Shown: positions 1-32,000, counted from the stretch's first letter. The stretch: 32,000 bases of DNA from Candidatus Saccharimonadota bacterium (GCA_030429145.1 JAUIDC010000001.1:870001-902000); one strand, 5' to 3'. Numbers and translations: made by a program. Notes: generated from the sequence alone by a model not told the origin.

Positions 1-174
1 TGTACCACCAACAAAGATGAGAAAGTGGATGAAATTGAGCCTTCTTCTTTGCAGTCCATCGATGGCAAAGAGCAAAAAGAGGATACTCGCTATGATCAGG
101 ATAAAGCTCAAAGGACTCATGTACAAAAATGAGAAAACACATATAAATAAGGATATATGTTGGTTTTTACTCAT
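1..174 (-). CDS. hypothetical membrane protein, N-terminal part (gene runs off window start)
   Basis: ATG at 174-172 with 58 codons open to position 1. Translation MSKNQHISLFICVFSFLYMSPLSFILIIASILFLLFAIDGLQRRRLNFIHFLIFVGGT is strongly hydrophobic. Same strand as neighbours. No family recognised. Confidence 0.3.
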   Translation of the reverse strand, partial: MSKNQHISLFICVFSFLYMSPLSFILIIASILFLLFAIDGLQRRRLNFIHFLIFVGGT

Positions 175-201
175 TTATAAGGCAATTGCAACGAAAAGGG
201 A

Positions 202-1383
202 TTAGTTCTTTTTCGTTATTTTTGCAGAAAATATTTGGTCGTAGACTTGGATATCTATCTCGTCACCTGGCTCCAGTTTTTGTACATTGTCTTTCGACAA
301 GTATGCTCCTTGCTGCATGAGCAATGCATAGCCACTTTGTAGTATCTTTGTAGGAGAGCTCGCCACGATCGTATGATACCACGCATCGATCTGGACTCTT
401 GTGTGTTGCAGTAGCCCTTTTGCAGCCCTTACTATCTGTCACTGCCAGAGATCTATGTTATCTCTCATACGTATCAGTTTCTCTGTGCTGAGCGTGATGA
501 TACTATCATAGAGCACAGTAATATTTTCTTCCCACTCTTCAAGGAGTTCAGTCAACTTATATGCAGCATCTGTAGGTGTTTTTGCTCCATACCAAGCGAT
601 GTCCTGTAAGACAGTTTTATCTTGAGTATGGCCTACAGCAACGATGACCGGCACAGGCATCAGACAGATCATTTTTGCTATCTCGAAATCATTCTGCCAG
701 GCCATCCCGCTACTCTCTCCTCCTCCACGAATGATCGCTACAGCGCTAAATTGTTCACCATCTTTTATATCTGTCATAATAGTAGTTAACTGTTCCTGGA
801 CCTCTGCAATAGCATTGTTCCCGTGCATGGCACAGAGATACTCTTTGTATTCAATATTATAGCCAGATTGTGCTGCAATAGTGTAAAAATCCTTTAGTCA
901 TGCAGCATCTTGCGCCGATATGATAGCGATCTTGTATGGTGGATATGTTCGTGAAAGATATTTATTGTTATAGATTATTTGTAGTTTTTGTAATTTTTGG
1001 AGAATATCCTCTTGTTTTTTTTGCAAATGGCCGAGTGTGTACTCTGCGCTGAGTTCATTGATGATAATGCTTATCCCATAGTCTTTATGAAACGAAAACT
1101 TCCCGTAAAAGAGCACCTTTAAGCCTGTCATCTCTGAAACGTCTCTCAGTTTTGTCTCACGAAGAAACTGTGCATAGATACTCTCTTGAAAGATACACCC
1201 CTTCACCTTCGCAACGATTTTTCCCTCCTCGTCGTACTCCACGAGCTCCGCATAGACATTTTTGCCTTTTTGCTGTATCTTTAAAATCTCTGCTCTTCAC
1301 CAAAAATCAAAGCCTCAAACAACAGCCTTGAAACTTCTGTCCAATATATCGAGCAACGCCGAAAGCGAGTATTGCATTTCCAT
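202..1383 (-). CDS. xseA: exodeoxyribonuclease VII large subunit
   Basis: Joins track ORFs 439..828 and 898..1242 through in-frame TGA (898-900, 439-441, two more near the N-terminus). 393 aa. OB-fold-like N-terminus (FWGRAEILKIQQKGKNVYAELVEYDEEGKIVAKVKG). Core IIRGGGESSGMAWQNDFEIAKMI...PVPVIVAVGHTQDKTVLQDIAWYGAKTPTDAA is typical XseA. Stop TAA 202-204. Confidence 0.85.
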
Positions 1384-1433
1384 AATTGTAGTATACAAAA
1401 AAGTGACTGCAAAGCCACCTTTTTGTTTTTCTC

Positions 1434-28312: not shown

Positions 28313-31300
28313 CTAACTATTTCACCCGATGAGTGAAATCTTCTTTGGATCAAATATCACGATTTCATCTCAATACTGTAGACCATCATATCAATCAGAC
28401 TTTAGTGCATCAGTCAATTTTTGCGATGCGTTATCACCAAAGGTATTGATATTGTATTTTTTATAAAGACCTCATATATCATCTAGTTGCACTTTCAGAA
28501 TGTTATCAGCTAGATGGGAAACTTCAAGGACATCTGCTACATCACTTAACTGCCCACCTTCTGCATATGGATCTTTTGATGTTGAGAGATGCACTCACTC
28601 TACAAAATTATCTCATAAGAAACTGCTCTCCTCTTGGACAGATTTATCTATGGAAAATCACTCCTTTCTGATTGCGTCAGCAGCGTTCGTACCGTGATAG
28701 AATTTTTGTCAAAGGATCTTTTTCTGTGCACCATTATTTGCCTCTTGTCGTATCTTCTTAAGCTGAGTTTCTGTTGTGATTTGCGAAGGATCAAAGACCA
28801 CATAAAATCATTTGTCCTCTATTATCATGCCATCGTAGCCTTGTTTTGCTAACTGCTCTGTAAATCTTGTGGCTTTATTGGCTTCTTTCAAGTATGACTC
28901 TTCGGTAGTATATATTTTAGGATTATCTATTTTCAATAATCATTTTGTTATTTCTCCATTAGTGCCAGCATAAGCAGTAGCATATCCAATATCATCAGTC
29001 CATCGAACCCCTCAAACTCTTTGTTTACTTAGATCAAAATCTCCTTTAGCTGTACCCCCATGATATAACAGTCATTTTTTATCATAACCGTTAATTCTCT
29101 GCTTAACGTTATCTATAAACGTAGCAGCTCTTTTATATGCTTTTGCCTGTTCTTGAATATTATTCATGCTGTTAATTATATCCGCATAAGGATTATTTGC
29201 AACATTTTCAGCAGTTTCTCCTCATGCTGGAGGATTACCTTTTGGGGAAGGACTTGATTGTGCATCACTTATCTGTTGTCTAATATCATCCAATAGCTTT
29301 TGATCACTTTCTGTGAGTGACTTTCTTGCCTCAATCTTTCCATTTATCTCTTGTAGCTTTTTCATAGCATCTGGCGTTTGACGACTCAACACCTCTCATA
29401 GAGATCAGTCTCTTAATTTTTTCATGCCTTTTGCTATTATATTTGATGCTACTGCTCATCACTCTATACCACCTAGAGCACCGACTGCTCCTCAGACCAT
29501 ATATCAAACTACTGCTCCGAGTCACTTAGTCACCAGTTTTGTAGTGAATGATTTTGGATCTTTTTGATAAATATCATATATTTTCTGTGCTGTTTGAATG
29601 GCATCAATTCTTTCCGCTATATCAGGCATTGCTTCTAAGAGTCTTTCGCGTAGAGGTGTTTTCGAGTCATTAAGTATATTTTTTATAGTAGAGTATATGT
29701 TTTCATTTGGTGTACCGTCTTTTTTGAAAAGCCCCCTCCTCAGTTCTTGGATTTGTTGTAATTTCTTTGAGAACTGTCAGTCCAACTCTCTCAATCAAGG
29801 TACTTTTTCTTTTGCTATATCATCTATTGCTCATCTCATTTCTCTGATAACTGGAGTACTATCAGTTGGCCTTCCGCTATCCCGCTTACTCATTGCATCG
29901 GTTGCCTGTCTTTGATTTAGTACCCAGCTTGGCTGGGCGGTTTCTTTGCTATTTAGTCTTTCATATACCCTTTGGATAGCATTGGTATCTCACTCCTTAA
30001 TGAACTTACTATTCGAGAAGTCCAAAGATCAATCCTGCTTGACATCGATATCATACTTACGTAAAATATCTGCAAGTTTGGTCTTCGCAGGAGTAAGATC
30101 AATATCGATATTTATTTTCCTTATATCATTATACAATGGTCAAGCCTCGCCCATTTGTCAAAGTGAGTCTTCGTGATACTGCTTCACATCATCCACTATT
30201 CCGTTGAGTAAACTTGATGAGACTTCTTTTGGCGTTAGCCCTCATTCTGATTGGGTGACTCATTCGTCTAGCTTAGTGAAATAGTCTCACACATATGGAT
30301 TGCTTTCAACCTTTTTCATTGTCTCTTGATCGAGTCCTGATGCTTTGTCTGTGGCTCGTTTTTTTATTACATCAGAATTCTGCATTAACGCTCATATAGG
30401 ATTTGATATGTTGATCGCTGTGTTAACAATTCTTTGTCCTCATGGTATAGAACTCGATCCTTTTGAAAGCATATTGAGTCATTTGTTGACTGCCTGTGGT
30501 ACTCATGCATCTCCAGCTCACAATGATGCTTTGCTAAAGTTTGAAAGTCTAGCCGCTTCATCAGAATATCATGCGACCTTAGCTCCTAGGCTCGTAGCCT
30601 TAGCTCCTCCACCTATCAATGTGAGCACATCACTTGCAACACCGACTGGATCTTGTTCCATGCTTCTTTGGAAGGCTTCCACACTACCATATCTATCGAG
30701 TATTACTTGATGTCACTCAGGAGTCGCAACCAATTTCACTAGTCCAGAAATAGTATCATATGGGTTGGTGACTCATCTAGCAAGTGCTGTCCCGAGTTTC
30801 ACCGCTGATCATGGAGCATTTACGAACATATTAGGGATTGTTTTGAAATCGCTGAATAGAACGTCTCGGAAAGACTTCGTTTTTTCTCTGATATAATTAT
30901 CTACATTGCCATACATGAGCTGAGCTGTTTTGTCTTTGGCAAAATTATCCTCATATTCTTTCCTTTTTTGGGGATCAAGATTTGCTACTTTCTCATCGAT
31001 CTTGTCACTTATTCCCGCAGAGACATCAAATCACGGGATCATCTGAGCGAGCTCGTCGAGAGACTCAGTCCCTTTCCCTATGATATTTGCCCAGTTGAGT
31101 GTTTTCATGAGAGTACTTTCATCCTCTGAAAGTCTAGCAGGTGTCGCTCTAAGAGCTGTTCCTGCATCTCCTAACTCCTGATCAGACATAGGATCATCCA
31201 TATTCGTCTCTGGGACTTTTCCCTCTAGTCCCATGACAAAGGTATTCAATCATATTTTACCGTTGATATAGCTCTCGAATAGTTTTGGAGCTTCTGGGTT

Positions 31301-31873
31301 TTGTTTCAATATATCGCTGATGATTTTATCGTCCGCCATATTTCTGACTCCTATCACGCCATCCTGCACAGCTCTGATCCTTACATAATCGGCAAACTGC
31401 GACATCTTAATCACCTTGTCGGTAGTAGCTTTGATTTTTTGATCAGACTCTTGAGCATTGCCAGAAATCATACCTTTCCTATGCGCATCTCTATCTTTGA
31501 GAAACGCAGTATCTTGCTTTAGATCAAGCATTTTTGCATAGTGAGTCTCTGCATCGAGTTTGTTCCCATTGCTGAGCTTCATGATATTGTTTTCTTCTTC
31601 TTTCGTGAGGCCAGGGAAACTCTCTGATGGATCTGGATTGTCAACAACATATGACTGGTTCGCCGACGTAGACATTGGCCTACGCATAGCTTGCTGCCCC
31701 TGTGCAGTTTTCTCCTGCTGTTGTTGTTCTATACTTGCCTGCGCATCTTTATTTACCGATGCAAAATTTTCATCCGGTCTAAAAACCTTATCCTTCTGAT
31801 CAGTATTGTTGGAAAGATCCGCAGTCGGATTGGTAGTTTTCTTTAATCGTGACGGTAGCTTGAAACCAAACAT
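28313..31873 (-). CDS. giant multidomain (polyvalent-type) protein, 1186 aa, with Gly-zipper TM segment and two C-terminal ART-like modules
   Basis: ATG 31873 (track ORFs 31250..31873 and 31031..31249 in frame), then continuous to TAG 28313-28315 through about 50 TGA, verified line by line. GLGAVVGYMVGGAVGALGGIEGGAVASNIIAKG at about 29425-29520. LLYHGGTAKG...WTDDIGYATAYAG...GYDGMIIEDKGFYVVFDPSQI and KFYHGTNADAIRKEGF...GVHLSTSKDPYAEG...GYDGLQYGDEIVIFDPKKI at 28325-29075. Confidence 0.8.
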
Positions 31874-31889
31874 ATTGCTGTCTGCTAAA

Positions 31890-32000
31890 TTATAAAACTA
31901 GTTGTATAATCAATTTGACATGAGATTGAGGTAGTTGATAGTCGGTAGTCATGATCATGAACCCAATCATATACCAGATCACGCACCTACTCATATGAAT
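31890..32000 (-). CDS. C-terminal fragment of an upstream gene (36 codons)
   Basis: Frame open from the window end to TAA 31890-31892 (...IWYMIGFMIMTTDYQLPQSHVKLIIQLVL). Too short to classify. Confidence 0.25.
   Translation of the reverse strand: MHMSRCVIWYMIGFMIMTTDYQLPQSHVKLIIQLVL

Follow-up and report, generated by a model that had tools for sequence, protein, structure and literature searches.

Comparative evidence for UGA as glycine and CGA/CGG as tryptophan in an Absconditabacteria-type chromosome segment and its phage-like insert

The genome assembly listed as Candidatus Saccharimonadota bacterium (GCA_030429145.1) includes, at JAUIDC010000001.1:870001-902000, a stretch of 32 kb with 39% G+C in which 38 genes were called. 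This whole stretch is referred to here as the window, and positions are counted from its first nucleotide. We propose, with a probability of roughly 0.88, that the window is a segment of an Absconditabacteria (SR1)-type chromosome carrying a phage-like insert from about 7.1 kb onward, and that both parts would be decoded with UGA as glycine, CGA and CGG as tryptophan, UAA and UAG as stops, and the other arginine codons with their standard meaning.

UGA as a glycine codon

TGA is a sense codon throughout the window. An earlier inspection, made without database searches and called here the sequence-only reading, had held that open reading frames (ORFs) of the standard code are broken by TGA, and the ORF statistics agree with it. 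When stop-to-stop ORFs of at least 100 amino acids (aa) were added up, translation table 11 gave 5950 aa and TGA read as sense 21840 aa, while the controls in which TAG or TAA was freed instead reached only 10462 and 10133 aa. A greedy set of non-overlapping ORFs covered a fraction of 0.63 of the window under table 11; this rose to 0.885 when TGA was made sense (0.75 and 0.72 for TAG and TAA), and the longest ORF grew from 295 to 1194 aa. All 38 genes together contain 237 in-frame TGA codons (2.5% of codons) and not a single in-frame TAA or TAG; 18 of them end at TAA and 20 at TAG, in the cellular and the phage-like parts alike, as had been claimed. The C-termini of GroEL, Dcm and the integrase agree with those of their homologs, which is consistent with TAA and TAG being stops.

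Retranslation and profile coverage, which had been suggested as a check, gave the same picture. The table 11 products of groEL, dcm and the integrase gene are truncated at aa 30, 50 and 44, respectively, and the Pfam models are spanned end to end only if TGA is read through: Cpn60 from 1 to 486 of 490, DNA_methylase from 1 to 322 of 324, PK from 4 to 328 of 328 and Phage_integrase from 2 to 169 of 172. Direct readout of the sequence also bore out the individual codons that had been quoted, namely TGA at 17752, 17761 and 18952 (GroEL) and at 21193 (integrase), all on the plus strand, as well as motif IV of Dcm at 12979-12996, which is TGATGATCGCCATGTCAG. The in-frame TGAs are not assembly errors, since the 13.2 kb from 3755 to 16920 recur with 100% identity in a contig of independent origin (contig 18105 of the Logan assembly ERR3428547).

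The residue specified by TGA was examined in alignments to homologs that had been gathered with TGA masked as X; those of GroEL, Dcm, a T2SSE/KH-domain ATPase and a family-2 glycosyltransferase (GT2) were pooled. Glycine was the top residue in 40 of the 48 alignable TGA columns. The mean log2 likelihood per column was −1.08 for glycine and −5.92 for tryptophan, the former being indistinguishable from that of the window's own GGN columns (−1.00). Across 36 TGA columns the mean glycine fraction was 0.66, and in the TGG columns of the window it was 0.00, with tryptophan at 0.91. The tabulation thus upholds the claim that the recoded positions are glycine and not tryptophan.

Individual proteins support the pooled result. 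GroEL has seven in-frame TGAs, the number reported before (aa 31, 34, 69, 102, 131, 351 and 431), and all of them fall on glycines of solved GroEL structures (VTLGPRGRNV, ENIGA, EGL, KRGI, GGKG and GGG). Their columns contain exclusively G or W among 120 database homologs, and so do those of ATPase positions 35, 244 and 264; the W is an artefact, because the protein collection translates this lineage with table 4. In Dcm, with 26 TGA codons, glycine is the top residue in most of the 22 alignable columns, and the closest homolog, which is free of in-frame TGA and lies on a contig with TGA as a stop codon, has glycine at 19 of 25 of these positions. For GT2 (149 homologs) the figure is nine of twelve alignable columns. 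The TGA at 21193 in the integrase gene was confirmed as the glycine of the L-x-G-H box, aligning with ELLGH of a XerC-like protein (4a8e) and LLGH of XerD (1a0p). The tail-fibre gene provides an internal test that is independent of databases: 14 TGAs were counted, as stated earlier, and 12 of them occupy the glycine position of G-X-Y (GYT) triplets. Two positions were uninformative, both of them non-conserved: TGA179 of pyruvate kinase (PK), whose column is N in the Staphylococcus aureus enzyme, and the XseA TGA that was checked against solved structures, where the residue is A.

Glycine at TGA outscored tryptophan in every Pfam family tested, with 154.3 versus 124.7 for Dcm, 238.5 versus 219.9 for GroEL, 89.4 versus 81.6 for the integrase and 129.4 versus 125.5 for Exonuc_VII_L (xseA). 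In GroEL loci of Gracilibacteria there are from 3 to 28 in-frame TGAs at matching glycine positions, whereas the standard-code loci of WS6, Oceanivirga and Flavobacteriales have none.

A Mycoplasma-type code (table 4), in which UGA means tryptophan, would account for TGA being clearly a sense codon and for the W placed at TGA in two entries of the public collection, P0248 and P0368. It is nevertheless barely credible: the small W fraction in the predominantly glycine TGA columns is what homologs translated by table 4 would give, the TGG columns look entirely different, the G-X-Y triplets require glycine, and every Pfam score falls when tryptophan is put at TGA. The standard code, with the TGAs as real stops in pseudogenes or erroneous assemblies, or as selenocysteine, has in its favour the bare presence of in-frame TGA and nothing more, and its probability is practically negligible. 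The codons lie on conserved glycines with no TAA or TAG among them, the independent assembly reproduces the sequence, relatives share the GroEL TGA positions, and TGA is much too frequent to be explained by selenocysteine. With that, table 4, pseudogenes and selenocysteine are all excluded. The comparisons confirm the predicted decoding of UGA as glycine, not tryptophan, in the host genes as well as in the phage-like region, and with it the claim that the two parts share this reading.

CGA and CGG as tryptophan codons

The sequence-only reading had assigned the window to NCBI table 25. The part of that assignment that makes UGA glycine and UAA and UAG the stops stands; the part that leaves all other codons standard does not, as CGA and CGG were found to pair with TGG or with each other and never with a canonical arginine codon. 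This second reassignment had been missed. Because table 25 keeps all 61 sense codons standard, the label itself is not supported, and a table 25 translation of the window would misread 57 codons.

The genes of the window contain 45 CGA and 12 CGG codons. Per 10,000 codons this amounts to 47 and 13, both rarer than TGG (74). With TGG as the sole tryptophan codon the tryptophan content would be 0.74%, which is unusually low; with CGA and CGG included it would be 1.34%.

The ATPase led to two close relatives, L010 (Logan SRR32417865) and L011 (GCA_017992195.1), whose PK is about 90% identical to that of the window. When the genes for the ATPase, PK and XseA were aligned codon by codon with these relatives, there were 16 pairs of CGA or CGG with TGG (seven CGA-TGG and nine CGG-TGG), 12 pairs of CGA or CGG with one another and no other pair; AGA, AGG, CGT and CGC never occurred as partners. 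The exchange goes in both directions. Codon 40 of the ATPase gene is CGA in the window and in L011 but TGG in L010; in xseA the CGA of the window is TGG in both relatives, and TGG of the window is CGA or CGG there; and in PK, TGG174 and TGG407 of the window are aligned with CGG in the relatives. Within the window, CGA98 and CGG88 of two pilin paralogs (pil2 and pil3) align with a TGG of a third (pil4).

Columns of more distant homologs are consistent with these pairs. In ten CGA/CGG columns the top residue was W in six, aromatic in two and R in none, and the log2 likelihood per column was −2.37 for W, −4.73 for Y and −6.01 for R, a profile that mirrors the TGG columns and is unlike that of canonical arginine columns. 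In 84 of the latter, R scored −2.55 and was the top residue in 49 (K in 19), and the W fraction did not exceed 0.01 in the 60 that were checked for it. Among the 149 GT2 homologs, W is found 138 times at CGG171, 44 times at CGA281, 68 times at CGG345 and 37 times each at CGA511 and CGA547, with F 37 times at CGA533. The column of CGG109 in Dcm holds Y 87 times, W 30 times and R 3 times.

Replacing arginine by tryptophan at CGA and CGG also raised profile scores in the inserted genes: the methyltransferase family phrog_954 from 207.1 to 219.4 (+12.3), the Erf family phrog_1097 from 133.7 to 139.5 (+5.8), Pfam Rad52 from 35.9 to 42.2 (+6.3), Laminin_G_3, at CGA199, from 73.3 to 78.8 (+5.5 bits) and DNA_methylase from 154.8 to 157.0 (+2.2). 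As a control, the same replacement at randomly chosen canonical arginine codons lowered the score in eight of eight trials. Taken together, CGA and CGG appear to behave as tryptophan codons in host and inserted genes alike, and AGA, AGG, CGU and CGC appear to remain arginine.

Several observations weigh against this decoding scheme. A residue other than glycine is the commonest in 8 of the 48 TGA columns; the column of Dcm CGA319 is V and that of GT2 CGA408 is variable; and an HNH gene with four CGA codons drops from 24.1 bits with R to 20.3 bits with W (−3.8). In the mobile genes, about ten alignment columns and about eight score-tested codons are informative out of 50 CGA/CGG codons. No tRNA gene (ARAGORN) or release-factor gene was found in the window or in related loci (seven loci in the case of tRNA), and the codon meanings come from comparative sequence analysis. 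As to the HNH gene, its CGA codons are at variable sites, and there the background frequency of W is by itself enough to lower the score.

Two alternatives take up these points. Decoding might be mixed or transitional, with some CGA codons of the element still intended as arginine, as in a recently acquired HNH gene, or with CGA and CGG ambiguous between arginine and tryptophan. The HNH score and the two of ten columns that favour no aromatic residue speak for it, and, as stressed by Shulgina and Eddy (PMC8629427), only experiment can exclude ambiguous translation. It is an unlikely alternative: the HNH codons are at variable sites, and the informative positions of the mobile genes (methyltransferase, Erf, LamG, Dcm CGG109 and five in GT2) all favour W. 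The other alternative is plain table 25, with CGA and CGG still arginine. It has the UGA part fully supported, HNH scoring slightly better with R, and public pipelines that give R at CGA and CGG, for example in P0368. We consider it very improbable, since all 28 orthologue pairs are with TGG or with CGA/CGG and none with a canonical arginine codon, R heads none of the ten columns, CGG171 of GT2 is W in 138 of 149 homologs, and five family scores go up with W, whereas the matched control at canonical arginine codons brings scores down.

Taking into account that the evidence spans host genes and the inserted element, the code would therefore be that of Absconditabacteria and not plain table 25, and the CGA reassignment would point to Absconditabacteria rather than to Gracilibacteria. 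The named homologs of the ATPase (Absconditabacterales, Absconditicoccus praedator and SR1) agree with this, and the broader affiliation with SR1/Absconditabacteria and Gracilibacteria that had been put forward is supported by them and by the matching TGA positions of Gracilibacteria GroEL.

By analogy with published work (PMC8629427, PMC13092985), UGA would be read by a tRNA-Gly with anticodon UCA, release factor 2 being absent, and CGA and CGG by tRNAs with anticodons UCG and CCG that bear tryptophan identity elements. The element would rely on the decoding apparatus of the host, having adopted all three reassignments; it presumably depends on it because there are no tRNA genes of its own in the window. 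Its genes would not be correctly expressible in a cell with the standard code.

The phage-like element and its host segment

The host block (202-6977, minus strand) consists of xseA, for the large subunit of exonuclease VII (202..1383; Pfam Exonuc_VII_L, 4 TGA, 1 CGA), four tandem type-IV-pilin-like paralogs (1434-1988, 2038-2610, 2633-3199 and 3257-3826; Pfam N_methyl and T2SSG, direct-repeat family D2), the PK gene (3973..5397; Pfam PK 189.5 bits, one TGA, 90% identical to the L010 orthologue), the ATPase gene (5643..6977), with a likely start at M20 (6920), CGA at aa 40 and TGA at aa 27, 35, 244, 264, 434 and 435, and a small ORF. The pilin paralogs lie near the ATPase and share a near-identical N-terminal methylation and transmembrane segment followed by divergent C-terminal domains; the array also contains one end of the independent Logan contig.

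Both relatives retain the ATPase-PK-xseA synteny. Nucleotide homology to them ends at about 7043, in an intergenic region, so that the synteny break lies at about 7044-7160, and none of the genes that they carry beyond the ATPase has a homolog in 7044-32000 of the window. Because homology stops there and the flanking genes are unmatched, all DNA of the window beyond about 7.1 kb would be inserted. It contains phage-type genes (replication initiator, Erf-like protein, exonuclease, methyltransferases, integrase, tail fibre and LamG virion protein). Within the window, which ends inside the element, genes for a capsid, portal or terminase were not found. A query of IMG/VR with two of the phage proteins returned no relative, and Rfam gave no match in the window, nor in the junction at 6950-7550 with E-values up to 1.

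On the plus strand a replication, recombination and modification module (7279..17313) encodes, by PHROG and Pfam matches and besides small ORFs, a replication initiator (7519-8511), an Erf/Rad52-like annealing protein (8547-9311), a Gp157-like protein (9583-10248), an FtsK-gamma protein (11704-12285), HNH (12278-12682, with its four CGA), Dcm (12772-13917; Pfam DNA_methylase), a DnaQ-like exonuclease (13920-14486) and a DNA methyltransferase (16019-16735). In the initiator gene, three tandem copies of a unit of about 22 nucleotides (nt) at 7858-7965 encode YPEKS(G/D/E) peptide repeats. The HNH gene, taken as 12203-12772, overlaps both of its neighbours, the FtsK-gamma gene at its end and dcm in its start region, and no CGA codons other than its four scored better as arginine than as tryptophan; it may be a recently acquired homing-type gene, or these positions may simply be variable.

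Downstream of this module are groES (17328-17630) and groEL (17662-19326), also on the plus strand, with Pfam scores of 81 bits (Cpn10) and 238.5 bits (Cpn60). The former has two TGAs, and the latter lacks TGG, CGA and CGG codons. Taking into account that: (i) the GroEL of the window is at most 60% identical to any of the 120 homologs; (ii) another GroEL (P0002), apparently from the same source genome, is 74-77% identical to those of the relatives; and (iii) the canonical groESL of a relative is placed among housekeeping genes, the groES-groEL pair of the window looks like a divergent second copy borne by the element. Its GroEL also carries a 13-residue in-frame insertion in the equatorial domain (about 17983-18021) that is absent from all 120 closest homologs. 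Comparison with three Gracilibacteria loci revealed no common synteny beyond groES-groEL itself, and correlations of relative synonymous codon usage (0.65 versus 0.71) fail to assign GroEL to host or element.

The region 19952-21288 of the plus strand holds a cysteine-rich ORF and the tyrosine integrase gene (20395..21288; Pfam Phage_integrase 89.4 bits, with XerC/XerD-type structure matches). Convergent to it, a minus-strand block (21285..25555) comprises ORF133, small membrane proteins, an unknown 325-aa protein (21530-22507) and GT2 (23855-25555; Pfam Glycos_transf_2, 14 TGA, 7 CGA/CGG). Beyond it, on the same strand, are the genes for a LamG-domain virion protein (25652-26359; PHROG virion-protein family, Pfam Laminin_G_3), a collagen-like tail fibre (26361-27386; PHROG tail-fibre family), ORF147 (27860-28303), which stands among phage structural-type genes, and a protein of 1186 aa (28313-31873; 41 TGA, 6 CGA/CGG) with no Pfam or PHROG family match. 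In the C-terminal third of the latter, two segments resemble each other and both end in GYDG(M/L)...(V/I)FDP; this suggests that the protein is large and virion-associated, with an enzymatic or effector domain in duplicate.

The 22-nt sequence GCGGGTTTGTCTAGCAACAACT is present twice on the plus strand, at 7159-7180 and at 25594-25615, as an exact direct repeat with sharp edges; by estimate, about 3e-5 repeats of that length would be expected by chance. The left copy, a candidate attL attachment (att) site, is situated shortly after the point where host homology ends (about 7043). The right copy, between the LamG and glycosyltransferase genes, overlaps a terminator-like hairpin (CCCGCA-TATAG-TGCGGG), and phage-type genes continue beyond it; it is a candidate attR or an internal repeat. 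The repeat was not found in the relatives, with up to 4 mismatches allowed, or in two public collections, and neither an empty attB nor a circular attP was found. The two copies could be the att sites of an 18.4-kb integrase-bearing element with a second element behind it; alternatively, the repeat could be internal.

Usage of the reassigned codons was compared between the element (7279-31873) and the host block. TGA makes up 40% of the glycine codons in the element (167/422) versus 18% in the host (26/144; Fisher p=1.4e-6), the left module being the extreme with 48%. The share of CGA/CGG among tryptophan codons is 48% versus 29%, a difference that is not significant taken alone (Fisher p=0.11). 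That the element follows both UGA as glycine and CGA/CGG as tryptophan, makes heavier use of the reassigned codons than the host genes beside it and carries its own divergent groES-groEL is, as one combined statement, a proposal to which we give even odds. If it were general, three codon changes would tie the phages of this clade to their hosts, and the reassignment of sense codons would extend to a mobile element, for which no earlier case was found in the literature consulted.

Relation to known codes and recoded phages

The code of the window and prophages with code 25 have already been published, and the present finding confirms rather than discovers them. For SR1 and Gracilibacteria, the reading of UGA as glycine has been on record since 2013 (Campbell et al. 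2013 and Rinke et al. 2013, both cited in PMC8629427), and it corresponds to NCBI table 25. The window resembles that table in UGA as glycine, in UAA and UAG as sole stops and in its source among candidate phyla radiation (CPR) bacteria, its nearest named homologs being from Absconditabacteria, SR1 and Gracilibacteria; it differs in that the table keeps CGA and CGG as arginine, where the window would read tryptophan.

With Codetta, Shulgina and Eddy (2021, PMC8629427) predicted for Absconditabacteria UGA as glycine and CGA and CGG as tryptophan, together with matching tRNAs, and a 2026 paper (PMC13092985) takes CGA/CGG as tryptophan in this group as established. The code proposed here does not differ from that prediction: it has the same three reassignments, the canonical arginine codons are kept, and CGA and CGG are rarer than TGG. 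The window thus offers independent comparative support for a CGA/CGG assignment that has so far been a computational prediction. PMC8629427 did not cover phages or prophages, and the window would show an integrated phage-like element following the CGA/CGG reassignment.

Mycoplasma and Spiroplasma with table 4, and the recoded phages of table 4, are alike in using UGA as a sense codon and in having ORFs that break up under table 11. They are unlike the window in the meaning of UGA, which is glycine here and not tryptophan, and no suppressor tRNA or release factor of the element was found in the window. Annotation of the window with table 11, table 4 or table 25 would in each case be wrong. The consequences are visible in the public collection, where the copy of the ATPase (P0248, 5643-6920) has W at each TGA that it spans, and the copy of GT2 (P0368, 23855-25555) has W at 14 of 14 TGAs; both have R wherever the codon is CGA or CGG, and in GT2 this would make 21 wrong residues out of 566 in all. 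Mistranslated entries of this kind would introduce spurious W and R columns into homolog alignments of the clade.

The closest counterparts of the element are the prophages of Gracilibacteria and Absconditabacteria described in mBio in 2023 (PMC10746230), all of which are dense in in-frame TGA. They share with the element the integrated phage-like region with integrase and tail genes, the abundance of TGA and the use of the host's code. That study used table 25 and made no mention of CGA/CGG or of chaperonins. Unlike the prophages as described there, the element of the window would read CGA and CGG as tryptophan; it also has a groES-groEL pair of its own, and its adoption of a sense-codon reassignment may be a small new point.

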